Source: an uncultured virus (IMG/VR IMGVR_UViG_3300037466_002408)
Taxonomy: Duplodnaviria > Heunggongvirae > Uroviricota > Caudoviricetes
IMG/VR virus record: IMGVR_UViG_3300037466_002408
DNA length: 36,293 nucleotides
Reading direction: 5' to 3' (one strand)
A model generated the notes under the pieces. The model was not told the DNA's origin. It did no database searches and saw nothing but the letters and a program-made list of their open reading frames with translations. Positions within the stretch are counted from its first letter, which is position 1; the number at the start of each line of letters is the position of its first letter. Below, in pieces: positions 1,143 to 34,071 of the stretch. A program made the translations under genes and the position numbers.

Positions 1143-1196
1143 GTTACAAAGCGTTACAAACTCTCGCTTGGCCGGGACTCTTCGTTTGGCTACTAT
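1143..1196 (+). promoter_or_regulatory. Sigma70-like promoter with upstream tandem GTTACAAA box
   Basis: GTTACAAA-GC-GTTACAAA (1143-1160), TTGGCC (1168)-17 nt-TACTAT (1191). Confidence 0.7.
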
Positions 1197-2703: not shown

Positions 2704-2825
2704 TGCTTGAGCAATTTCTAAATTACTGGCTTGGTCCAAACATCACTCAAGTTGTGACTATTTTTACAGTATTTTTTCTTATCGCTGTATTTCTAGTACA
2801 TATGGTTAAGGCGGCTGTGAAGTAA
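2703..2825 (+). CDS. 40-aa single-TM protein
   Basis: TAATG coupling at both ends; MLEQFLNYWLGPNITQVVTIFTVFFLIAVFLVHMVKAAVK. Confidence 0.65.
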   Translation: MLEQFLNYWLGPNITQVVTIFTVFFLIAVFLVHMVKAAVK

Positions 2826-3475
2826 TGATTATTGCAATTACTGGCCCTGCCGGAAGCGGCAAAGATACGCTCGCTGAAAACATTGTCAAGAATCTCGGTT
2901 ATGTTCAATCCTCGTTCGCTGGTCCGCTAAAAGAGTTTTGCGAGAAGGTGCTTGGCCGTCCTCTGGACAAGGGGACCGAGAGAGATTTGCTAATTTATGT
3001 TGGCGAATATCTCAAGGGCCATAAAGCCCCGTTCCCCGAGATTCTGAAGAACAACAATCAAATTCTTCTAGAGCTAAGCATTCAAATTGCTCTGCTTGTT
3101 GAGACTCAGAAGAATTACTACAAAAACAAACCTTTTCAAGATTCTTTCTGGGCTGAAATTTGGGCACAAGAAACCGAAGCGGGGATTGATACTGTGATTT
3201 CCGACATTCGCTTTCCTGCTGAATTTAAGTACCTACGTAATCAACAGAACGACGAGGTTGTTTTTGTCGAGTTAGTTTCCAGCCGAGAGAATTGCGAGAA
3301 GCGCCTTTTGCAGCGCGACGGCAAGATTCCCGAGGGTCTTTGGGAGAGCCGAGCGGAGAACGCTTGGAAGTCAGAGCGCAAAGACTTGTTTATTGATGTA
3401 GATATCTGCAAAACTCCAGATAAAGTGTTTTTTGAACTACATAAATTTCTAGTTGAGAAGGGTTATAATGTCTAA
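2825..3475 (+). CDS. Deoxynucleoside monophosphate kinase
   Basis: P-loop GPAGSGKDT, SFAGPLKE, ISDIRFPAE typical of phage dNMP kinases. Confidence 0.88.
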   Translation: MIIAITGPAGSGKDTLAENIVKNLGYVQSSFAGPLKEFCEKVLGRPLDKGTERDLLIYVGEYLKGHKAPFPEILKNNNQILLELSIQIALLVETQKNYYKNKPFQDSFWAEIWAQETEAGIDTVISDIRFPAEFKYLRNQQNDEVVFVELVSSRENCEKRLLQRDGKIPEGLWESRAENAWKSERKDLFIDVDICKTPDKVFFELHKFLVEKGYNV

Positions 3476-4682
3476 GAAATTTGACAAGAATTGGCTAATC
3501 CGCGCACTAATCACGCGCATTCTAACGGACAAGATTATTCCTGAACTCAAGTACAAGCCTGAGTTTTTTGGCGATTATCAGCGCCTTATCCAAAAGATTG
3601 TTGAGCGTCGAACTGATCTGCCATCTTTGGAGTATGTCTGTAAGACTTACACTTTTGAGGCGACCGACACCGAGCTAACTCTAACCGATCTAACGACTGA
3701 GCTTAACAAATTTTATTTCGAAGAGGGTGCAGCTTCAACCATTCAAAAGCTAGTTGAAGAAGCCAAGCGTCAAAACATTGACCCCATTGAAATGCTGGAC
3801 CGCACCACCAAGGAATTCAATGGAATTCGCCATGCAATCAGCCGTGCTTACTCCATCAACCTCACTGATGACGTGGACAAGATTGGCGAAGAGTATGTGC
3901 GCGTGTCCGAGGGCGGCTCATTCGTTAAGACTGGTTTTAAACCTTTTGACGACATTGTTTGCCCTAAGACTGGAAATCTTGTGATTCTTTGCGCCCCAAC
4001 AAAGGGCGGCAAAACAACCACAATGGTTAAAATGCTTACCAATTGTCTTGAACAGGGTGTTGATTCTCTCTATTTCAGCCTTGAAATGGGATTGATTGAG
4101 ATTACCAATCGCATTTTGACCAACACTTCTGAATACAATTTCCGCCAATTGCACTTCGGCAAGGTTCCCGTTGAGGATTACAAGGCAGAGATTAAGAAAT
4201 ATAAGGGTAAGGCCAAGGTTGATATCGTCACCAAGCAATCTGAGGCCCGCATTGATATTCCCACTATTGAGCGGTACATCATCGAGAAAAAGCCCAAGAT
4301 TGTTTTCATTGACTATTTGAGCCTCATTGATGGCGCTAACCAAGCCTGGGACGCTGCCGTTTCTCCCCCGGCTGAGTTGAAGTCAATCGCCCTACGAGAA
4401 GACGTACTAATCATTCTCGCCGCTCAGGCTGACACTGAGACAATGAAGGGCTCTGAGGTTCCCAAGATGACGAACCTTCGCGGTAACAAGGGTCATGCTT
4501 TCGATTGTGATGTGTTCCTCGGCGTTCGCGGTATGCCTTACCTCCTGAACGATGGCGATGATTCGTTCCGCTATGCCTTTGAGGTTTCAGGCTCCCGAAA
4601 CGGTGGTATGCCAGAGTGGACAATGCGCGTGAAGCCTAATCGTGGCGATTGGCAGTACGACGACGAAAATGGAGATAACTAA
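3468..4682 (+). CDS. dnaB: DnaB-like replicative helicase
   Basis: Walker A APTKGGKTT, FSLEM, FIDYL, AAQ motifs. Confidence 0.9.
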   Translation: MSKKFDKNWLIRALITRILTDKIIPELKYKPEFFGDYQRLIQKIVERRTDLPSLEYVCKTYTFEATDTELTLTDLTTELNKFYFEEGAASTIQKLVEEAKRQNIDPIEMLDRTTKEFNGIRHAISRAYSINLTDDVDKIGEEYVRVSEGGSFVKTGFKPFDDIVCPKTGNLVILCAPTKGGKTTTMVKMLTNCLEQGVDSLYFSLEMGLIEITNRILTNTSEYNFRQLHFGKVPVEDYKAEIKKYKGKAKVDIVTKQSEARIDIPTIERYIIEKKPKIVFIDYLSLIDGANQAWDAAVSPPAELKSIALREDVLIILAAQADTETMKGSEVPKMTNLRGNKGHAFDCDVFLGVRGMPYLLNDGDDSFRYAFEVSGSRNGGMPEWTMRVKPNRGDWQYDDENGDN

Positions 4683-4684
4683 AA

Positions 4685-5215
4685 GTGCCTAAGCTTGAAT
4701 ACGGTAAGACATATACTACTTATAATGGAACTAGATATCTTATGGTTCCTGACGACCAACTGCACAATTATGTCTTTTGCTATAGCGGCAATAAAGTTGA
4801 TCGTAGAGACAATAAAGGAATGGTTCGACCCTTCGTTGGCCTTGAAATTAAGGGCGACGGAAAGGTTGTTGGCTGGCAGGACTTCTCCGAAGACGGCATT
4901 GCTGGTTCTGGCAAATACGCGCAGCTTAACATTAAGTTTGAGCCTATTGTTGAGCCAGAACTCAAACAAAACCGAGGTGTTTACGGTCAATTCTCTAAGC
5001 TTGAGGAAGAATTTGCCGAAATGAAGGAAGCATATGAAAACTCGGATTCAATTGCTCTCCTAACAGAGTCATCTGATTTCATTGGTGCCCTTGAAGAATT
5101 CATTGAGAAGCAATTTCCTCCGCTAACTCTCAATGATCTAATTCTTCACTCTAACAACAAGAAGAAGGCGTATGCAGAAGGAAAGCTTGTCAACCGTGAC
5201 GGAACTGCTCGGTAA
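4685..5215 (+). CDS. Hypothetical protein with C-terminal MazG-like (all-alpha NTP pyrophosphatase) domain
   Basis: KLEEEFAEMKEA...E..D acidic pattern. Confidence 0.55.
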   Translation: MPKLEYGKTYTTYNGTRYLMVPDDQLHNYVFCYSGNKVDRRDNKGMVRPFVGLEIKGDGKVVGWQDFSEDGIAGSGKYAQLNIKFEPIVEPELKQNRGVYGQFSKLEEEFAEMKEAYENSDSIALLTESSDFIGALEEFIEKQFPPLTLNDLILHSNNKKKAYAEGKLVNRDGTAR

Positions 5216-5549
5216 AAGAGTTTACGTCTACCGTAATCTGCACAAGAATTGTTTCAGTGTGATGTTGGGCGGCAAAGTCGTCGCCCACGTCAACGAAATT
5301 CACCTGAAAGATGTTGAATTCAGAGTGCGAGAAAATGGCCGACAAAAAGTTCTCCGAGAGGGGAAGAAAAATGTTCATGCTTTTGTTATTGGCACAGTAA
5401 TTGAGCAGCCTGAGAATAACGACTTCCCGTTTGAAGTGACTTATAATCCATACAAAAACAAATCTTTTATGATGGAAGATTATGATGGTTTGTGGGCAAT
5501 TAAAAAAGAAGCTTATGTTCATTTAAGAAATAATAAGGTGTACGTATGA
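5196..5549 (+). CDS. Conserved hypothetical phage protein
   Basis: YRNLHK..FSV, KNVHAFV.G, YNPYK pattern recognisable from many phages. Confidence 0.75.
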   Translation: MTELLGKRVYVYRNLHKNCFSVMLGGKVVAHVNEIHLKDVEFRVRENGRQKVLREGKKNVHAFVIGTVIEQPENNDFPFEVTYNPYKNKSFMMEDYDGLWAIKKEAYVHLRNNKVYV

Positions 5550-5986
5550 CAGAGCGGGATAAGTTAATCGCCAAAATCAAAGACGACATTGATAAAGGAA
5601 TGCAAAAGTTTGTTGAGCGAAAATTCACCAAACCTACCAAAGAAGAAGTCTCTGAATATGTCAGCAAAACTCTTGAGAGATACCTTGGGTATTGCAAAGC
5701 TGAATTACCCGACCCGCCAGAGGAATTAGCCACTATCGGCCCCAATGGAAACATTGTAATCAATGTTCGCGCAATGGCCGCAATGCTTTACTGGTACGAG
5801 TCTAATGAACAAACCCGAGCAGAGCTAATGTTCAAGAAGATGTATGGGCAAAACGCATTAGAGAACGTTCAGTCTGTGGGTTTTTCGCCAGAGGGAGATT
5901 GGCAAGTTAAATTCTTGCATCCAGTTGAATACTTCCTCGTTACCCTTGAGACTTCAAAAGATGGAGTGAAAATTGTCGAAAACTAA
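5546..5986 (+). CDS. Hypothetical protein
   Basis: Overlap-coupled 146-aa ORF. Confidence 0.7.
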   Translation: MTERDKLIAKIKDDIDKGMQKFVERKFTKPTKEEVSEYVSKTLERYLGYCKAELPDPPEELATIGPNGNIVINVRAMAAMLYWYESNEQTRAELMFKKMYGQNALENVQSVGFSPEGDWQVKFLHPVEYFLVTLETSKDGVKIVEN

Positions 5987-6776
5987 CGTAAATCGAACCA
6001 GCACCCCTATTAAATGGGCGGGCGGTAAAAGCTGGATGGCTGATGAGGTCAACGAAATTTACCAGAATCACCGAGAGAAAACTTTCGTTGAGTTGTTTGC
6101 TGGCGGATTAGGTGTCAGCTTTGCCATCAAGCCTGAGCGCGTTCTAGCTGTCGATAAGAATTTCGATCTGATTCGTTTCTATAAGCGGCTCCAAGAGAAG
6201 CCTGTTTTTGATTTGGAAATGAAGAATGACGAAGAGACTTATTATCAGCATCGCCAACTCTTCAACGATATTCGCAAGAAGTTCACGCTTGAGAATGAGC
6301 AGTTAAAGGCTGAATTGTTCTATTACCTCAATCGCTGTGGGTACAACGGCTTATATCGCGTCAACAAGAAGAACGAATTCAACGTTCCTTACGGCAAATA
6401 CAAGTATTCAAACGCCAAGAACGACTTGACTGAGTATTCGGAAATCATCAAGCACTGGGAATTCATTTGCGGTGACTTTGAGCGTGTCCGTTTGCTAGAG
6501 GATGACTTTTTGTTCATTGACAGCCCATATGACACGGAGTTTACGGCCTATACTGACGATGGCTTTACCTACGATGATCAAGTCAGACTTCAAGATTGGT
6601 TGGTAACAAAGAAGAACCCCATGATTTCTACAAATCAGGCTACTCCGCGAATGATTGAGTTGTATGAAAAGTACGGCTGGAATATCGAGTATCTTTCACG
6701 CCCCCGCAATTTCCGCCGAGGTAAAGACCGCACTGAGGAAGGGAAGCGCGAGATCTTCGCCACCAAGAACCTATGA
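5973..6776 (+). CDS. dam: Dam-family (D12 class) DNA adenine methyltransferase
   Basis: KWAGGK, ELFAGG, YNGLYRVN..FNVPYG, motif IV DSPY. Confidence 0.9.
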   Translation: MSKTNVNRTSTPIKWAGGKSWMADEVNEIYQNHREKTFVELFAGGLGVSFAIKPERVLAVDKNFDLIRFYKRLQEKPVFDLEMKNDEETYYQHRQLFNDIRKKFTLENEQLKAELFYYLNRCGYNGLYRVNKKNEFNVPYGKYKYSNAKNDLTEYSEIIKHWEFICGDFERVRLLEDDFLFIDSPYDTEFTAYTDDGFTYDDQVRLQDWLVTKKNPMISTNQATPRMIELYEKYGWNIEYLSRPRNFRRGKDRTEEGKREIFATKNL

Positions 6777-7357
6777 AGTTTGACGTTATTACCCTCGACA
6801 CTCCATGGCCCTACTCTAAACCAGGGCCAGCAATGGGGAAGGCAGCAGAATCTCACTACAAGACAATGAAGCGAAAAGATATTCTGGAATTCACAGAAAT
6901 GCTTCATCTTGTTTGTGCCGATAACTGCGCCATCTTTACCTGGGAAGTTAATCCCAAGCGAAAACTCGCCAACGAAATGTTGACAATTATGGAGAAGCAC
7001 GGTTTCCATTATGCAACTAAAGCCTTCACCTGGATTAAGCTCGATAACAGCGGAAAACCCTATCGAAATATGGGTAACTACACCGCGTCCAACGAGGAGC
7101 CCTGCTACTTGTGGGTACGGGGCTCAATGCCCCCCGTTGCTAAGGTGGTTGATTCAGTCATCTTCACGCGAGGTAGAATGCCGCATTCGGCAAAGCCTGA
7201 GGAAGCTCAGGACCGCATAGAGCTTATGTATCCGCTCGATCGTTACAAACATTTAGAATTATTTGCCAGACGACAACGACCGGGCTGGACCGTAGCGGGG
7301 TATGGTATTGATGGCAAGGACATTCGCGATGCAATTAAAGAACTTTCTCAGCTTTGA
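6773..7357 (+). CDS. MT-A70 family adenine methyltransferase
   Basis: DTPW motif IV, HY.TM, FTWIK, HSAKPE, LELFARR..PGW. Confidence 0.9.
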   Translation: MKFDVITLDTPWPYSKPGPAMGKAAESHYKTMKRKDILEFTEMLHLVCADNCAIFTWEVNPKRKLANEMLTIMEKHGFHYATKAFTWIKLDNSGKPYRNMGNYTASNEEPCYLWVRGSMPPVAKVVDSVIFTRGRMPHSAKPEEAQDRIELMYPLDRYKHLELFARRQRPGWTVAGYGIDGKDIRDAIKELSQL

Positions 7358-7889: not shown

Positions 7890-8782
7890 GCGAGCTTCTA
7901 ACTACCTTAAATGAATTGGGATTCAGGGGCAGAGCTAGTCGCTCTGGCGAAATGTCTCTAGCCTTCTGCCCGTTTCACGAACATTCGTATAGAAGCCCGT
8001 CCCTTCACATTAACGTAGAGAAGAAAGTTTTTAATTGCTTCTCCTGTGGTGAGAAGGGTCACATCAACAAAATCCTGAAACACTTTGGGATTTCGATGTT
8101 CGACAACATCAAATCTCATGAACAATTTGTTGATAAGCTTCAATCACTTCTTCTATTCAAAGATGAAGAAATCGCCCAAGAAGAATACCAACTTCCTGAT
8201 GTTAGTGAATTAAAGCAATTCCGTTACCTTCACCCCTACCTTCTAAAAAGGGGATTCTCACGGGAGATTTTGATTCAAAATCAGGTGGGATTCGACAAGC
8301 AAGCTTGTGCTGCGACAATTCCCGTTTTCCACAACGACACCTATTATGGTGTCATTCGTAGAACGGTCTTATCAGATGTACTCCCGAAGTACACCTATCC
8401 CCCCGGCTTCCCTAAACAGCGACTTTTGTATAGCCCAAAAGTAATTTCCGTTAGGGAAGCCGATGTTAAGCTTTATGGCGAGGGTAGCCTTGATGCCTTA
8501 AACGGTGCTGATAAAGGGTATTATACGGATGCGATCCTTGGTGCTCGGTTCTCAGATTCCCAAATTCAGGAGTTCGAAAGAGAGCCGCGCCGAAAGTTCC
8601 TCGCTCTGGACAACGACCCCGCAGGCCGCGCAGGAATCCAGGACATTTTAAGGAAAACCACTCTTTGGGATATTTGGATTTTTAATTTTCCCGAGGGGAA
8701 GAAAGACCTGGGAGAACTAACGGCAGACGAGATTTCCTGGGGCGTGGCAAATGCAAAACACCGATTTGATTTTGACCTGTAA
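7886..8782 (+). CDS. dnaG: DNA primase (CHC2 Zn finger + TOPRIM)
   Basis: CPFH...CFSC, EG..D, LDND..G, KD..E. Confidence 0.93.
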   Translation: MSELLTTLNELGFRGRASRSGEMSLAFCPFHEHSYRSPSLHINVEKKVFNCFSCGEKGHINKILKHFGISMFDNIKSHEQFVDKLQSLLLFKDEEIAQEEYQLPDVSELKQFRYLHPYLLKRGFSREILIQNQVGFDKQACAATIPVFHNDTYYGVIRRTVLSDVLPKYTYPPGFPKQRLLYSPKVISVREADVKLYGEGSLDALNGADKGYYTDAILGARFSDSQIQEFEREPRRKFLALDNDPAGRAGIQDILRKTTLWDIWIFNFPEGKKDLGELTADEISWGVANAKHRFDFDL

Positions 8783-14149: not shown

Positions 14150-14205
14150 TTTCGTTTCACTCCCACATAAACAATGCAGCATTACGGACACATTTACGTT
14201 ATTAA
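14134..14205 (+). pseudogene. Orphaned dnaE 5' end (MQETLISFHSH plus 12 unrelated residues)
   Basis: AGAAGGA RBS; 10 residues after Met identical to DnaE residues 3-12 at 14827-14856. Confidence 0.85.
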
Positions 14206-14824
14206 AAACGCCATCACTGGAATGCAATACGTAGGTCAAACAACTCAAGATATCTACGTAAGGTGGCGAAATCACAACAGCGATCATTCTAGATGCCCAT
14301 ATTTATTTTCGGCATTGAAAAAATATGGACGCGAAAGCTTCATATTGACAATTGTTGATTATGCTGAAAACAAAGAAGAGTTGGATGACGCGGAAATTTA
14401 TTGGGTTCGTAAATTGAACACTATGGCCCCAAATGGGTACAATGTAAAAGAACCAGGCGGCACCAGGGGCAAGCTACAGCAAGAATCTAAAGATAAAGTT
14501 GCTAAATCAAAACGCGCCACACTGAGCCGCAAGGAATTTAAAACATCGAAATATAAAGGTGTTGGATACTCAAAACAAAAAGGCAAATTCAGGTGCGCTC
14601 TTTGGATTGGTAAAAAGATTGTTGTCGAATTATATTTTGAATCTGAAGAAGTTGCAGCTAAAGTTTATGACTATTTTGCTTTTACGAACGATTCAGATTC
14701 CTATTTGAACTTTCCAAATGAAGTTTTAAGTGGCTATCAAGTTACAGAAATAATTAACAACGAATACAAAGACAAAAAGATAAAGCCTAAAATTCTTGAA
14801 AAGCTAATTGGAGAATTCTTTTGA
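14174..14824 (+). mobile_element. Free-standing GIY-YIG homing endonuclease with C-terminal AP2-like DNA-binding domain
   Basis: HIY-10aa-YVG, R..NH, E..W, NGYN; SKYKGV...FESEEVAAKVYD. Confidence 0.9.
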
Positions 14825-17886: not shown

Positions 17887-17935
17887 TTCTAGTGTCGGCT
17901 TCTTCACAAAACTTCACATTCCAGATAACAAGAAA

Positions 17936-17954
17936 GCCCCGGCTTTGCCGGGGC
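17936..17954. terminator. Terminator between convergent genes
   Basis: GCCCCGGC-TTT-GCCGGGGC; T-rich tail on minus strand. Confidence 0.8.
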
Positions 17955-17968
17955 CTCTTGCTTAAGGT

Positions 17969-18256: not shown

Positions 18257-18452
18257 TAAGTCCTCACTTTCTTGTAACAATGTGTTGCGTGTGTAACGTA
18301 TCGTAAAAGATATTATGGTTGACTGTCAATTAGAAATTTTACCGCAATCACCGTCATTATGCCGAATAGCGGGCCGTCAGCCTCAGTAGAACACGATTAT
18401 ACGAGCAAGCACAAACTTTACATTCGAAATTCCGTTCGACCAGATCAGGGCA

Positions 18453-22542: not shown

Positions 22543-22596
22543 TTTACAATCGTTAACAGAAATCAGGTTGACATTCATTTTGGGATTTGCTATTCT
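22543..22596 (+). promoter_or_regulatory. Sigma70 promoter with upstream tandem box
   Basis: TTTACAAT-CG-TTAACAGA; TTGACA (22568)-17 nt-TATTCT. Confidence 0.85.
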
Positions 22597-23396: not shown

Positions 23397-23572
23397 TGAA
23401 TTGGAAATTTGATTGTTATCGCAAAGAGTGGATTTGCGAACATGGTGTCGGCCATTATGATCCATTCCTCAATAAATACACCACTCATGGCTGTGAGGGT
23501 TGTTGTGGTCATGATGACTTCCCCGGCAATGTTCCACTGGAAAATCGCGACACCAACTTTTACAAACGGTAA
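23396..23572 (+). CDS. 58-aa Cys/His metal-binding protein
   Basis: CEHGVGH...HGCEGCC; GGAGG RBS, TAATG coupling. Confidence 0.75.
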   Translation: MNWKFDCYRKEWICEHGVGHYDPFLNKYTTHGCEGCCGHDDFPGNVPLENRDTNFYKR

Positions 23573-23622
23573 CAAAAGACTTTCAAAAAGTAGTTGACAC
23601 TAACAACAACACCTGATAGTAT
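23559..23622 (+). promoter_or_regulatory. Sigma70 promoter with upstream tandem box
   Basis: TTTACAAA-CG-GTAACAAA; TTGACA (23594)-17 nt-TAGTAT. Confidence 0.8.
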
Positions 23623-23678: not shown

Positions 23679-24224
23679 ATGACTACCAAGACCAACAAGA
23701 CCAGCACTGTTAACACCAACAAGGGCAAGGGTAAGGACGACAACACCTTCCAGGCCAACATGCCCTCTGAGGATGATATGGTCAACATGCTCAAGACCCT
23801 TATCGCCAACGCCGAGAAGGAAATCACCGAGAGTGTGAAAACTCTTGAGGGCATCACCGCTGAGATTGACGAGAAGCAGGCCGAGATCAAGACGCTGCGC
23901 ACTCAGCAGGACGATCTCACCGCTCAGGTTCGCCCCACGCAGCGCAAGATCAATAACTGGAAGGCTGCGCTTGCTGACCTTGAGAAGCCGACTGATGTGG
24001 GCACGACTGGCGGCAACCGTGCTGGTGCTGGCCGTCCTCCTGTCACCACGCTGCCTAACTGGCTCACTGGCCTGCCAGATGAGTTCACGGCTGATGACGT
24101 TGCCAACACTCACAACATGCCCCGTTCGTCGGTTCTCACGTACCTGTCTCGTTACTCCAAGGATGGCCGCTTCATCGAGCGTGTCAGCACCGGCACCTAT
24201 CGCCTTCTGGCTGCCAACAGCTAA
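23679..24224 (+). CDS. Coiled-coil plus winged-HTH DNA-binding protein
   Basis: Long heptad region, GGNRAGAGRP linker, FTADDVA...IERVSTGTYRL wing. Confidence 0.75.
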   Translation: MTTKTNKTSTVNTNKGKGKDDNTFQANMPSEDDMVNMLKTLIANAEKEITESVKTLEGITAEIDEKQAEIKTLRTQQDDLTAQVRPTQRKINNWKAALADLEKPTDVGTTGGNRAGAGRPPVTTLPNWLTGLPDEFTADDVANTHNMPRSSVLTYLSRYSKDGRFIERVSTGTYRLLAANS

Positions 24225-25422: not shown

Positions 25423-25476
25423 TTTACAATCCGTAATCTAAAAACCCTTGACTGTAATCATAGAATTTGGTAATCT
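25423..25476 (+). promoter_or_regulatory. Sigma70 promoter with upstream tandem box
   Basis: TTTACAAT-CC-GTAATCTA; TTGACT (25448)-17 nt-TAATCT. Confidence 0.75.
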
Positions 25477-25503: not shown

Positions 25504-25710
25504 ATGCTCAGAACGAAACAATTTTATCGCAAGAGTGTTCGCGCACTTCTTGACGAAATTAAGTACCACCGAAAGCATGGCGATAGGCGTGCTGTAAAGC
25601 ATTTGCAATGCGTATTGTGGGATTTACGCACACACTGGCAACAAGTCATTAAAGTTGAACGCCTGGAAAACAAAAAGCGAGGTAGAAATGGTCGCCGGAA
25701 TCACAAATAA
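25504..25710 (+). CDS. Basic hypothetical protein
   Basis: GGGAG RBS after promoter. Confidence 0.7.
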   Translation: MLRTKQFYRKSVRALLDEIKYHRKHGDRRAVKHLQCVLWDLRTHWQQVIKVERLENKKRGRNGRRNHK

Positions 25711-25846: not shown

Positions 25847-25894
25847 AGAAGAACAAACAAGGCACCCCCAACGATAAGAAAGAGAGAATTCCAT

Positions 25895-29393: not shown

Positions 29394-29540
29394 ATGCAAA
29401 AATATCTAGCCGTATGCACAGACGGCGGCAATGTATACAACACAGAGTTTGAAGCCCAGGATGACGCTGATGCCACGCTCTTAGCTGCCGCATTGCCGGA
29501 TAGAGTATTGAGTTTGTATAGAATCGAGCAGTTATTCTAA
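29394..29540 (+). CDS. 48-aa protein, paralog A
   Basis: MQKYLAVCT...EFEA...LYRIEQLF; AAGGA RBS. Confidence 0.7.
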   Translation: MQKYLAVCTDGGNVYNTEFEAQDDADATLLAAALPDRVLSLYRIEQLF

Positions 29541-29692
29541 TGACTAATATCCCTCGTCTGCTACAATCCGCCAAGATAAACCTAGAGTGGCTAGAGAAAC
29601 GCATCAGCGAAAACAACGACACCGAGGCATACAAAATTACTCAATTGATAATCCGCAATATGGAAACCATACAGAAAGGGCTTGATGTATAA
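29540..29692 (+). CDS. 50-aa helical protein
   Basis: TAATG coupling on both sides. Confidence 0.65.
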   Translation: MTNIPRLLQSAKINLEWLEKRISENNDTEAYKITQLIIRNMETIQKGLDV

Positions 29693-29859
29693 TGCCTAAG
29701 TACCTAGCAGTACATACACAATTTGATTGGCAGAGTTTTTCTACTCACAGATACACTGTCGAATTCTCGGCAGAAAATAATGAGGTCGCACTAACAAAAG
29801 CCAACAATATGATGGGCGACTTGCAAAATCTATATAAGATCGAAGCGGTTTTGTACTAA
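29692..29859 (+). CDS. 55-aa protein, paralog B
   Basis: MPKYLAVHT...EFSA...LYKIEAVLY. Confidence 0.7.
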   Translation: MPKYLAVHTQFDWQSFSTHRYTVEFSAENNEVALTKANNMMGDLQNLYKIEAVLY

Positions 29860-30370
29860 TACCCCCTAGGCCCTAAATTGTGCGCATGACCCGCACTATT
29901 GGATCGAAATTTGAGAAAAAAGATTGGAGCGATTGTGTTAAATATCAAAATGTACAACAGAAAGAATGTGCCAGAATTAGTAAATGAAATGACTGTTGAT
30001 ATGTCAATGGACGAAATCTATAATTTATTGGTTGCAACTTATAAAGCAGAGAATAGGCTTGAATGGTCACACAGAGGATTTAACAACTGTGCAATTGTCA
30101 CCGCAGGGCTTACGATTTCTCTCAACAAAATATTTAACTGACAAACCACAATCTTTTTAAGGCCAATGGGAATTTTCCTAACGGCCTTTTTCTTTTTTTA
30201 TTGGCGGCTTTCCAAAACCAACCGGCTTTCTTATACGGGAAAACTTTCGAACTCTTTTAAAATCCGCCCTGACACTACAACACGCACACTGCTTTACGAG
30301 AGAATTTTGTTGGGCCGGTTTTTTCTGCGCAATTCCCCATGCGGGGGTGCCAGTTCGGCCTACGTAGTTG

Positions 30371-30553
30371 TAAACAATTGTAACATGTTACAAAACTTCA
30401 TAAACAAATGTGAAGCTTCACAGAACTTTACAAAGAAATGTTAAGCGTTATAAAACTTCATTACAGATTATGAACCGTTACAAAACTTAATGATGAATTG
30501 TTAAGCGTTACTTTCCGTAATGAAGAAATGTAACGGGCAATAGAACTTTACAT
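30371..30553. repeat. Six degenerate 30-bp tandem repeats with 10-bp sub-period
   Basis: Units align without gaps; approximate consensus taaagaaatg-ttaagcgtta-caaaacttca. Confidence 0.85.
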
Positions 30554-30671
30554 TTACGTAGCTGCATCTACATAGGCGCATTCTGCCCCGGCCGAATTAC
30601 TTTGGTATGCAAAATATTCGCCGTGCTAAAGGTTTGTGCCAAGTGTAATTGGAGCGGTTACAGATACAGAC

Positions 30672-30700
30672 AAAAAAATGACCCCTCTTGCGAGGGGTCA
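30672..30700 (-). terminator. Intrinsic terminator
   Basis: TGACCCCTC-GCAA-GAGGGGTCA followed by T7 on minus strand. Confidence 0.92.
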
Positions 30701-30706
30701 ATCGTT

Positions 30707-30934
30707 CTACCCGTTGGGCACTAGGCGCATGGCCTGCTCCCATTCGTCCATGTCACCGCGCATGGTCCCGTCATCACGCCAGATCGCCGCCTGGTATCGG
30801 CCCGGTTCGATCTGGTAGATCCCGACGATCGATTGCTTGCGACCTGTGAACTCACAGGCCCTAGCGTCATCCAAAATACGGATGATCTCAATCGCCATGC
30901 CGTTGACCGTTTGCGTCATTCCAATTTTGAACAT
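30707..30934 (-). CDS. 75-aa hypothetical protein (monocistronic)
   Basis: GGAGGT RBS, own promoter and terminator. Confidence 0.8.
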   Translation of the reverse strand: MFKIGMTQTVNGMAIEIIRILDDARACEFTGRKQSIVGIYQIEPGRYQAAIWRDDGTMRGDMDEWEQAMRLVPNG

Positions 30935-30970
30935 TTGTTACCTCCAAATGTCGTTAGTGGATGGGCGAGC

Positions 30971-31038
30971 TATTCAGTTTTCAATGTGCGTTCCTTTGAG
31001 TACACAACTATTATCTCATGACACATAACATGTGTCAA
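30971..31038 (-). promoter_or_regulatory. Leftward promoter with overlapping palindrome and boxA-like element
   Basis: TTGACA-17 nt-GATAAT; palindrome TGACACAT-N3-ATGTGTCA; GCACATTGAAAACTGAATA downstream. Confidence 0.75.
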
Positions 31039-31596
31039 CCGATTTGATGTCATACGATGACATTTTTATTAGTCGATTTTTGTTACTTCATATGAGTGCA
31101 TGACACTCAATTACGAGCCGGTCATGCACTGACGTTAAAATCCCGGCGCATCAAAGAGTCATCATGCCTGTAGCTAAAAACGAACCGAACAGAAAAATAT
31201 CATTAATGCATGAGTGTCATCATGTCGGTTCATGCCGTGCGAATTACTCATGCATGCGAATTAACACACTAGTCGATTTTTACATATAAGCTGATTAACA
31301 CCACTCACTAAAAGTAAGCGCCCAAACGTCCTATTCATACCGATTTCGCCTAGAATGCCTGTTAATCAAGGGGGGTAGGGTGGTAGGACGTTGGATATCT
31401 ATCAGCTGTTATTTGCCCTCCTAGGGGCCTTAAACGCGATATTCCAAGATAACCGATTGGTTGATTTCTGGATTTTGCCTCTTAACAGGTTTGAACTACG
31501 TTCAAACGACATGCGACGCCCATACATGACACGCGCGCATGTACATGCGTACATGCGCCCTGCATTGCCTCGCCAACAAAAACCCTGATCTGGCAT

Positions 31597-31706
31597 TTGT
31601 AACGAATTGTTTAGATAATGTTGTTAGAGGCATTTTTTTTCGGAATCGTGGTATAACTAACTAGGGTTAAATTTTCGAGCCCCAAACGAACTTTCCCAAC
31701 TGAATA
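31597..31706 (+). promoter_or_regulatory. Rightward extended -10 promoter with boxA-like element
   Basis: TGGTATAAC at ~31649-31657; GAACTTTCCCAACTGAATA at 31688-31706; reverse tandem box at ~31597-31614. Confidence 0.6.
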
Positions 31707-32313: not shown

Positions 32314-32442
32314 ATGCCGCGTCGCTACATTATCAGCGGGAACACTGCCCGCTAGAAACGAGGTTAATTCAATGATTCAAATCGTGCTTACCTGCATCGC
32401 CGTTACTGTCTCGTTTATCGCTCGCTGAAAGGCTGGAATCCC

Positions 32443-34071
32443 ATGAACTGGAAAGCTAATTACCCCGCTCTGATTTCTGAGGCCGCACACTTCGTCGATC
32501 TGATTTCGGCCCTTGAAAACACCAATGACAACAAGAGCGAAAAATTCAGCTCGCTTGATAACGTGGTGAACATTCCCGAAGAGTTTGACATCGACATGGA
32601 TCAGTTTCAACGTCTGTTCAATCGCGCCTGGGAAGCCAAAAAACTCATGGCGCATGCGCTTGGCTTGGGCGCTGATTATCGCCGGTTCATGACTGTGGAA
32701 GATCCCGACATGATCAAATCCGAGATGCTTTTTCAGAATGTGCGCGCAGCTTATTGCCGTGCTTTGAATTGGGATGCGGATTTGACGCCCGTTGACGTTG
32801 TGACTGGCACGATCAAGGACAAGCATGGTCGCGATGTTCGCTTGTCCCGTGTTTTGTCTCGCACCTTGCCCGATGGCATCCCGTGCGGCTGGCACTCTCC
32901 GACCTATGCCGATGGCTGCAACGATTGTCTTAAGAAGGACAAAGCGATTTCGGATTTGTTCGATCTGGCGAAAAATGCCAAGCGGACGATCATGATTTCC
33001 TGCAATCCATTCGATATCTGGACTCAGAGTTTTAATGCCGGTTTCCGTTCTTGCCATGCGCCCAATGGCATTCATGCGGCTGGCTCTTTGGCCTACTCGA
33101 TCGACGGTGTTTCGTTCGTTTGCGCCGTGGTGGACACGGATCGCCAGTTTGGTCACATCCCTTACAAGCATGGTCGCCGCATGGGCTTCCTGTCCGAATG
33201 CCGCATGCATCTGGTGATCGGCCGTAAATACGGCAATTTCCATGACACGCTCTGTAAGCCGATCACAGGCGCTCTCACTTCCTCGATCACTGTTACTATG
33301 GGCTTCGGCGCCAAGGAATGGATCGGCACTTCCAAGAATTTCCCTAATTTGAATGTTCGCGGTGAAGGCCCGGTTTACTTTGACTACGGGATCGGGCGCT
33401 ATTCTCGCATCAGCACTCGAAAGAAGGGCGATTTCACGATCAAGCTTGCAGCCGAGGTTCCCTGTCTTTCGTGCGGTAAGGACCATTCCACCGAAGACGC
33501 TTGGGTGTGTGAAGATTGCCATGATGATTCCGATTCTTGGCACTGTGCCGACTGTGGCGAACGCCGCACCGATGATCCTGATAATTACTCGAACGATAGC
33601 GGCGATCCCGTTTGCTATCACTGCGCGCGCAATTATCACAATTGTGAAGAATGCAACGAACGCATGCATGAAAACAATTCGTTCTATGTCACCAACATGG
33701 GTAATCTGTGCCGTTCCTGTTATGACGACTTGCCGACTTGTGACCGTTGCGGTGATCATCGGATGGAAGGTGACTTGCGCGATATGCCCGATGATCAGTC
33801 ATGGTGCAATTCGTGCGAACGTCGCTATTGGGTGGATTGTCATGATTGCGGCGAAGATGGGGCCGGGGATTCGCAACACATGAACCGGGTACGTGTTCCT
33901 GTCATTGGTCGCTATGGCTCTGTAACCGTTTACGTTTGCGATTGCTGTAACAACAAGCGGATCGAGGCGGAAAGGGAACGACAAGAGCGGATCGAAGCGG
34001 ATCGGATCTCTCAAGAAATCGCCGAAATCCACGCATCCATCATGCCAACCGAATTGGCCGTCTATCGATAG
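32443..34071 (+). CDS. 542-aa hypothetical protein with C-terminal tandem CxxC zinc-ribbon repeats
   Basis: About 10 CxxC pairs in the C-terminal third; SCH motif in the N-terminal domain. Confidence 0.85.
   Translation: MNWKANYPALISEAAHFVDLISALENTNDNKSEKFSSLDNVVNIPEEFDIDMDQFQRLFNRAWEAKKLMAHALGLGADYRRFMTVEDPDMIKSEMLFQNVRAAYCRALNWDADLTPVDVVTGTIKDKHGRDVRLSRVLSRTLPDGIPCGWHSPTYADGCNDCLKKDKAISDLFDLAKNAKRTIMISCNPFDIWTQSFNAGFRSCHAPNGIHAAGSLAYSIDGVSFVCAVVDTDRQFGHIPYKHGRRMGFLSECRMHLVIGRKYGNFHDTLCKPITGALTSSITVTMGFGAKEWIGTSKNFPNLNVRGEGPVYFDYGIGRYSRISTRKKGDFTIKLAAEVPCLSCGKDHSTEDAWVCEDCHDDSDSWHCADCGERRTDDPDNYSNDSGDPVCYHCARNYHNCEECNERMHENNSFYVTNMGNLCRSCYDDLPTCDRCGDHRMEGDLRDMPDDQSWCNSCERRYWVDCHDCGEDGAGDSQHMNRVRVPVIGRYGSVTVYVCDCCNNKRIEAERERQERIEADRISQEIAEIHASIMPTELAVYR

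Follow-up and report, generated by a model that had tools for sequence, protein, structure and literature searches.

A promoter-less tandem array of promoter boxes in an uncultured tailed phage, a possible docking platform for an OmpR/PhoB-type regulator

The 36,293 nt of IMG/VR record IMGVR_UViG_3300037466_002408, referred to here as the window, carry an array of six contiguous 30-bp units at 30371–30553. The array is made of the same tandem-octamer box that stands beside promoters elsewhere in the window, its half-sites keep one helical register, and no promoter follows it at the offsets seen at those other boxes. Our tentative reading, which we hold with somewhat less than even confidence, is that the array would act as a docking platform, silent and lacking a promoter, for a regulator of the OmpR/PhoB type, probably that of the host, and that it may serve as a sink or a buffer for this protein.

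Genomic Context

Family matches of the window ORFs indicate that the region comes from a tailed phage and carries its module for replication and nucleotide metabolism. The genes recognized were as follows.

Nucleotide genes: ribonucleotide reductase (C-terminal part), thioredoxin, dUTPase, dNMP kinase and dCMP deaminase.
Replication genes: DnaB-like helicase, primase, Pol III alpha and SNF2 helicase.
Other genes: Dam-type and MT-A70 methyltransferases, GIY-YIG endonuclease, DUF932 protein and endonuclease VII.
Small protein with a PucR-type HTH, encoded in the window.

Genes run rightward to about 30.1 kb and in mixed directions beyond. DNA of the window was found in seven rhizosphere or soil metagenome runs, and the sequence pieces from four of these runs were all identical; coverage was fragmented and in the form of contigs only. 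The M20-like peptidase P0125 has an identical copy on a 98,293-bp contig, and the nearest virus record, 18,293 bp long and estimated by CheckV at 18% completeness, is a fragment in which the array region is missing. Taken together, these two observations suggest a genome of about 98 kb, of which the window represents approximately one third. Rfam and tRNA scans of the whole window gave no match.

Two arrangements among the coding sequences were observed in passing. The gene for the GIY-YIG homing-type endonuclease (14174–14824) abuts the start of Pol III alpha with a 4-nt overlap, and two long ORFs overlap in antisense at 32443–34071 (plus strand) and 32377–33759 (minus strand). The 542-aa protein of the plus-strand ORF has a C-terminal region rich in CxxC pairs and received no name from Pfam, PHROG or NCBIfam beyond a weak match to phrog_18912. 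A protein atlas places it nearest to viral hypothetical clusters (feature score 0.96, the first match possibly being its own cluster), and on this placement the 542-aa ORF is probably the real gene of the pair.

Repeat Structure of the Array

The initial annotation described six ungapped 30-bp units starting at 30371, 30401, 30431, 30461, 30491 and 30521, and the sequence agrees with that description; the box pairs it quoted were located at 30387, 30417, 30447 and 30477, and the palindrome TGTAAC-AT-GTTACA at 30379–30392. Tandem Repeats Finder recovered the array with a period of 30, 4.2 copies, 69% matches and a score of 115, the only row with a period above 12 among the 18 reported for the window. 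A repeat-family search grouped five of the six units, with 67–100% identity to unit 1 and spacings of 30, 30, 30 and 60; unit 5 (30491) is the most diverged and fell under the threshold of that search. No second copy of the array was seen in the window by repeat search.

Pairwise identity of the six units averages 63.8% (range 15–22 of 30 positions), as opposed to 30% expected by chance at the composition of the array, with no indels and with 9 of the 30 columns invariant. Autocorrelation within the array reached 0.627 at lag 30 and 0.40–0.43 at lag 10, making it the top-ranked window at both lags. The background, taken from all 183-bp windows, had means of 0.278 (sd 0.043) and 0.256 (sd 0.036), respectively, so that the array lies about 8 sd above the mean at lag 30 and about 4 sd at lag 10. 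A CRISPR array or the repeat unit of an RNA anti-CRISPR was considered and rejected, as no spacers separate the units and their likeness is limited to 50–73%.

The array and its flanking features are listed below.

30371..30553, no strand: array of six 30-bp units, from repeat finding, autocorrelation and the outside-array matrix.
30367..30384, minus strand: complete outward-facing box at the left array edge, GTTACAAT-TG-TTTACAAC, 15/16 to consensus.
30360..30370, no strand: left flank CTACGTAGTTG, a direct repeat with the right flank.
30555..30564, no strand: right flank TACGTAGCTG, a direct repeat with the left flank.
30679..30700, minus strand: intrinsic terminator of the leftward 75-aa gene (30707–30934), with 9 pairs, 6 of them GC, and a T run, found by terminator scan.
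30159..30203, plus strand: imperfect hairpin (30159–30188) followed by a T run, our own reading, missed by the terminator scan.

With the minus-strand box at its edge, the array reaches slightly further left than first described. It is bracketed by TACGTAG(T/C)TG, found at 30361 and 30555. The hairpin and T run at 30159..30203 probably end the rightward unit that contains an 80-aa ORF (29899–30141). The earlier claim that the array lies between two convergent terminators therefore stands for the minus-strand terminator, which the scan called, and for the plus-strand one depends on our own reading, uncalled by the scan.

The neighbouring 75-aa and 80-aa genes gave no family match, and neither did ORF 30166–30444, the sole ORF overlapping the array. 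No relative of the 75-aa protein appeared among 5.8 billion proteins, and its single-sequence structure model was poor (pLDDT 60.7). Beyond the 75-aa gene, which ends at the array, lies a 456-bp intergenic region (30935–31390) that is dense in CATGAC/GTCATG-type inverted repeats, including three perfect 10-nt pairs. It also contains an exact 12-nt direct repeat, TAGTCGATTTTT, whose copies are 200 bp apart, and a near-consensus promoter for the 75-aa gene (TTGACA-17-GATAAT with an upstream TG, 11/12). From its sequence this region looks like a second operator cluster, different from the array.

The Box Inside and Outside the Array

Each unit consists of a reverse half-site followed by two forward half-sites, F1 and F2, all of the TTNACA type. 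The reverse half-site occurs as TGTAAC, TGTGAA, TGTTAA or TATGAA; F1 (KTYACA) lies 8 bp from it, centre to centre, and F2 lies 10 bp beyond F1. F1-NN-F2 forms the tandem-octamer box and fits the HLR1 consensus (G/T)TTACA(T/A)(T/A)-N2-(G/T)TTACA(T/A)(T/A), a consensus from cyanobacteria. HLR1 is described, in the excerpt of the source available, as two imperfect 8-nt direct repeats (G/T)TTACA(T/A)(T/A) set 2 nt apart and bound by the OmpR-type protein RpaB (PMC6525291).

To count boxes we used this literature consensus, KTTACAWW-NN-KTTACAWW (PMC6525291), which is independent of the array. Eleven sites in the window match at 14/16 or better, as opposed to 1.3 ± 1.1 in 200 Markov shuffles (maximum 5); four of the eleven are in the array or at its edge and seven are elsewhere. 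Units 1 to 6 score 14, 14, 11, 13, 12 and 12 of 16, the value of unit 3 being counted by eye, as the scan listed only sites of at least 12/16. Outside the array there is one box of 16/16 (1143), two of 15/16 (7242 and 23559) and five of 14/16. As a control, 671 kb of metagenome loci anchored on DUF932 contained 26 boxes where 26.5 were expected. No clear enrichment at 14/16 was seen in 24 viral loci anchored on SNF2, in a viral locus anchored on DUF932, or in L002, a contig returned by a degenerate two-box search.

The boxes outside the array for which a position relative to a promoter can be given are listed here.

1143..1196, plus strand: box 16/16, GTTACAAA-GC-GTTACAAA; 7 nt; TTGGCC; 17 nt; TACTAT; upstream of a 60-aa membrane-protein ORF with its ATG at 1219.
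22543..22596, plus strand: box 14/16; 7 nt; TTGACA; 17 nt; TATTCT.
23559..23622, plus strand: box 15/16; 17 nt; TTGACA; 17 nt; TAGTAT; upstream of gene 23679–24224.
25423..25476, plus strand: box 13/16; 7 nt; TTGACT; 17 nt; TAATCT; upstream of ORF 25504–25710.
18290..18307, minus strand: box 14/16 directly after a -10-like TAATAT, followed at a distance of about 25 nt by a ribosome-binding site and ATG.
31596..31613, minus strand: box 14/16 directly after a -10-like CATTAT.
17903..17920, plus strand: orphan box 14/16 with no promoter after it, flanked by the stop codon of Pol III alpha on one side and a hairpin terminator on the other.

Each of the first four boxes is followed by a sigma-70-like promoter, and the gap to the -35 element is fixed, at 7 nt in three cases and 17 nt in one. 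Promoters and start sites are predictions, with the start assumed about 7 nt after the -10, and relative to these predicted starts the boxes span approximately -60..-43 or -70..-53. The available part of a study on RpaB gives an activating window of -66..-45 and one validated activating site at -70..-53 (bioRxiv 10.1101/2023.12.07.570523). Judged by the predicted -10 elements, the four promoter-linked boxes occupy the position of an activator. The array has no promoter and hence is not in the RpaB activating position. By our own reading of their position, a factor bound at the boxes 18290 (minus) and 31596 (minus) would repress. Strong or consensus promoters near 25860 and 27045 appear by eye to be without a box. 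At 17903–17960, a GC-rich hairpin is shared with the convergent minus-strand unit, so that, like the array, the orphan box lies where two units converge and has no promoter.

With direct half-sites 10 bp apart and boxes that end 7 or 17 nt before a -35 element, the predicted class of the box is clear, and we assign it to the OmpR/PhoB family type. To compare the array with these boxes, a matrix was built from 12 half-sites, all taken from boxes outside the array, and was used to scan 30361–30564 at a cut-off of 6 bits. It found 14 matches, as opposed to 2.77 ± 1.57 in composition-matched shuffles (maximum 8, with none of 2000 reaching 14) and to at most 6 in each of 16 AT-matched windows. Since the score exceeds the AT-matched background, the promoter box is indeed the building block of the array, as the initial annotation had claimed. 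All 14 matches fall in a single 10-bp register, which bears out the helical phasing proposed there.

The reverse half-site sets the array apart from the other boxes. Together with F1 it forms palindromes of 14–16 bp, an arrangement confined to the array: the inverted reverse/F1 pattern has 10 matches in the window, of which 5 are in the array and the other 5 correspond to the chance level. Units 1 and 2 carry different yet perfect palindromes, TTGTAACATGTTACAA and TGTGAAGCTTCACA, with matched changes in both arms, and the palindromes degrade in units 3–6. The invariant columns lie mostly on the TTNACA hexamer core, and position 3 of the hexamer varies freely.

Candidate Regulators and Host

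The box alone does not allow the regulator to be named, since the TTACA-N5-TTACA core is also recognized by BfmR of Acinetobacter; in the excerpt available this protein is described as binding as a phosphorylated head-to-tail dimer at sites just upstream of the -35 (PMC11806355). We therefore file the box under the OmpR/PhoB type. By analogy, RpaB would fit if the host is a cyanobacterium, and BfmR or an OmpR-like protein otherwise. The perfect-consensus box, the activator spacing and the weak use of Shine-Dalgarno sequences speak for RpaB. The last of these, a core at 13 of 31 gene starts, is compatible with a cyanobacterial host and is a weak indicator. The soil and rhizosphere source of the DNA is against RpaB or neutral, as are the lack of cyanophage marker genes in the window and the closest phage proteins, which are at most 45% identical and belong to actinophages and phages of the Bacillus group. 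HIP1 was found 0 times with 0.36 expected, a count too low to inform, and the window contains no taxon-specific NCBIfam family.

No Trans_reg_C (OmpR-type DNA-binding) domain was found in window ORFs of at least 60 aa, which is consistent with a binding factor encoded elsewhere. A host-encoded factor is plausible on this evidence, and a phage-encoded binder outside the window may also exist, as only about a third of the ~98-kb genome is visible.

Proposed Function

In the docking reading, the factor that reads the TTACA tandem-octamer boxes of the phage would also bind the array, and this factor would most likely be a response regulator of the OmpR/PhoB family supplied by the host. Within roughly 190 bp the array would offer about 18–20 half-sites at intervals of 10 bp, and with this number of phased half-sites many regulator dimers could load side by side. 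Earlier it had been said that the array has no gene to regulate. This holds in one sense only, namely that neither outward-facing end box is followed by a -35/-10 pair at an offset of 7 or 17 nt. As the array drives no gene in that sense, sequestration would be the likely effect of binding. The capacity of such a sink would rise with the copy number of the phage genome, and the regulator would be pulled from host promoters and from the box-dependent promoters of the phage itself. Two features of the units speak against the docking reading: the reverse/F1 palindromes are atypical of head-to-tail response-regulator sites, and the F2 half-sites are weak in units 3–5.

A bolder form of the docking reading seems to us unlikely, though worth stating. 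The array could be a dedicated DNA sponge for a global response regulator of the host (RpaB-, BfmR- or OmpR-like), in which replication would add hundreds of sites per cell, drain the regulator and rewire the host regulon, and would act as a copy-number timer that shuts the box-dependent middle promoters of the phage.

Phages are known to place sites for host regulators at their own promoters. A long, phased and promoter-less array would be a device distinct from these, one that would manipulate the regulator itself, or buffer against it, and whose capacity would increase with the number of phage genome copies. Should a response regulator indeed bind, this phage would offer a compact test system in which boxes in the activator position, boxes in the repressor position and a silent array occur together, and such sequences could help to predict the hosts of uncultured phages and their regulatory coupling.

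Alternative Explanations

The initial annotation had interpreted the array as a phased multi-site landing pad for a protein, either a decoy for a host transcription factor or a replication or DNA-entry element. Its promoter-box makeup and helical phasing were upheld; of the features of an origin, neither a DnaA box nor an evident unwinding element nor an initiator gene was found nearby. Iterons for a phage-encoded DNA-binding protein nonetheless keep a low but real probability. They could belong to an origin, to copy control or handcuffing of the P1 incA type, or to a partition centromere, and the same protein would then activate the box promoters. The array is long and consists of contiguous half-sites that are phased and in part palindromic; it occupies a transcription-free island between terminators and adjoins the replication module. 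The cumulative GC skew also turns nearby, with a peak at 29.6–30 kb; this is the point where gene orientation changes, so the turn is not independent evidence. Against iterons, phased repeats are present but no DnaA-like box was found within 1 kb of the array (the nearest are at 8325 and 28974), and no distinct AT-rich unwinding element was seen apart from the T runs of the terminators. Searches for initiator and Rep families, and for ParA, ParB, ParM and TubZ as partners of a partition centromere, gave no match in any window ORF of at least 60 aa, and the neighbouring genes, as noted above, have no family match.

We consider it rather improbable that the array is a cis element of an unannotated transcript, such as a small or antisense RNA, or a roadblock or insulator between the convergent units. 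The same box does adjoin promoters elsewhere in the window, the boxes 18290 (minus) and 31596 (minus) are at positions that would block transcription, and the orphan box at 17903 is likewise at a convergent junction. A promoter-like site on the minus strand (30642–30613) points into the array, but it is weak (9/12), and promoter-like matches in the array region are at the chance level, with 5 found and 5.6 expected. The end boxes, moreover, have no -35/-10 pair at the 7- or 17-nt offset, Rfam gave no match, and both flanking units already own terminators.

Neutral descent is also improbable. Here slippage or unequal recombination would have duplicated a box upstream of a promoter in tandem, and its copies would now be drifting without a function. 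The F1-F2 spacer AAC-TT is kept within the array and not among the boxes outside, from which we conclude that the units share descent by duplication, and the decay of F2 in units 3–5 agrees with drift. Simple drift is hard to reconcile, however, with the lack of indels at 64% mean identity, with a single register for 14 of 14 matrix matches, with invariant columns that follow the half-site core and leave position 3 of the hexamer free, and with the matched two-arm changes that give units 1 and 2 different perfect palindromes.

A role in nucleic-acid structure is very unlikely, whether as a series of hairpins formed by RNA or single-stranded DNA or as a MITE-like insertion with inverted ends. 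Both strands of the array give more stable folds than shuffled sequences do (z = -3.6 and -4.5; 0 of 200 shuffles reached the same stability), but inverted half-sites would produce such stability anyway. TACGTAG is present on both flanks, and the left flank with the adjoining GTAAAC matches the right end in inverted orientation at 13/16 positions (counted by eye) and forms the terminal stem in the folds. The palindromes nevertheless decay in units 3–6, no target-site duplication was seen, the array is single-copy in the window, and neither the phage collection nor Rfam gave a match. Finally, it is scarcely credible that a small terminase or an ejection protein recognizes the array as a signal for packaging (pac/cos) or DNA entry: some pac sites do contain phased repeats, but the window has no terminase or structural gene, and the array lies in the replication/early region and shares its boxes with promoters.

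Comparison with Known Systems and Other Contigs

Of the systems compared with the docking array, the HLR1/RpaB regulon is alike in its box architecture, in the 16/16 match at 1143 and in promoter boxes that, judged by predicted starts, would lie at the published activating window. As far as the available portions of that literature describe them, its sites are single or double and at promoters, whereas the phage array has 6–7 boxes and 6 reverse half-sites and no promoter. The occurrence of HLR1 in cyanophage genomes is mentioned briefly in the excerpts of the HLR1 literature, and a full-text literature search turned up no publication that describes phages with RpaB-box arrays. BfmR of Acinetobacter is alike in its TTACA direct repeats with a 5-bp spacer just upstream of the -35. 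Its sites, as described in the available excerpt, are chromosomal promoter sites; that excerpt mentions no array, and its binding model has no reverse half-site palindromic with F1 (PMC11806355).

P1 incA and E. coli datA are gene-less clusters of binding sites that titrate a DNA-binding protein, a replication initiator, and lie near its gene or origin. The phage array is likewise a gene-less cluster, but its box is that of a transcription activator, and neither initiator nor origin features turned up. Sites for host regulators also occur in phages at promoters or origins, such as the Spo0A boxes of phi29 and the Pho boxes and NtcA sites of cyanophages. These are alike in that sites for a global regulator of the host tie infection to the state of the host; the array is instead a promoter-less 30-bp tandem. 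As far as its sequence indicates, the array would represent host-type regulator sites on phage DNA in a promoter-less tandem arrangement.

Searches for relatives covered DNA and four protein anchors, and found none closer than 47% protein identity beyond identical fragments. A blastn search of 29500–31500 against the phage collection gave no match, and an exact 27-mer from the array had 0 matches in viral contigs. The DUF932 anchor returned one distant viral locus and 80 metagenome loci, none of them above 47% identity; the SNF2 anchor returned 24 viral loci, one of them a 100% identical fragment without the array and the other 23 at 35–42%. Pol III alpha returned one locus in genome contigs at 30% identity, and the 542-aa protein returned no relatives. 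No comparable non-coding array was found in the anchored loci.

L002 was rejected as a homologue of the array: it is an unrelated contig that carries GTTACAAAAC at other spacings and has no protein similarity to the window by tblastx. The contig has features of its own. Within about 4 kb (2800–7000 of IMGVR_UViG_3300006484_002890), GTTACAAAAC occurs in 50 copies on one strand and 1 on the other, in tandem runs with a period of 12, 15 or 17. Inverted pairs of GTTACAAAA..TTTTGTAAC are found upstream of small minus-strand genes, beside (AG)n runs.

TTACA-N5-TTACA pairs at a 30-bp spacing were found at no fewer than 121 viral-contig loci, mostly simple tandem repeats of 5 or 10 bp, and a permuted control pentamer gave at least 119. 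Among these pattern matches (at least 121, with at least 119 for the permuted control, so that no enrichment is claimed), four viral contigs, L190, L213, L139 and L156, resemble arrays of regulator boxes more than simple satellites, with imperfect 10-bp arrays of the (G/T)TTACA type at a GC content of 0.35–0.47.
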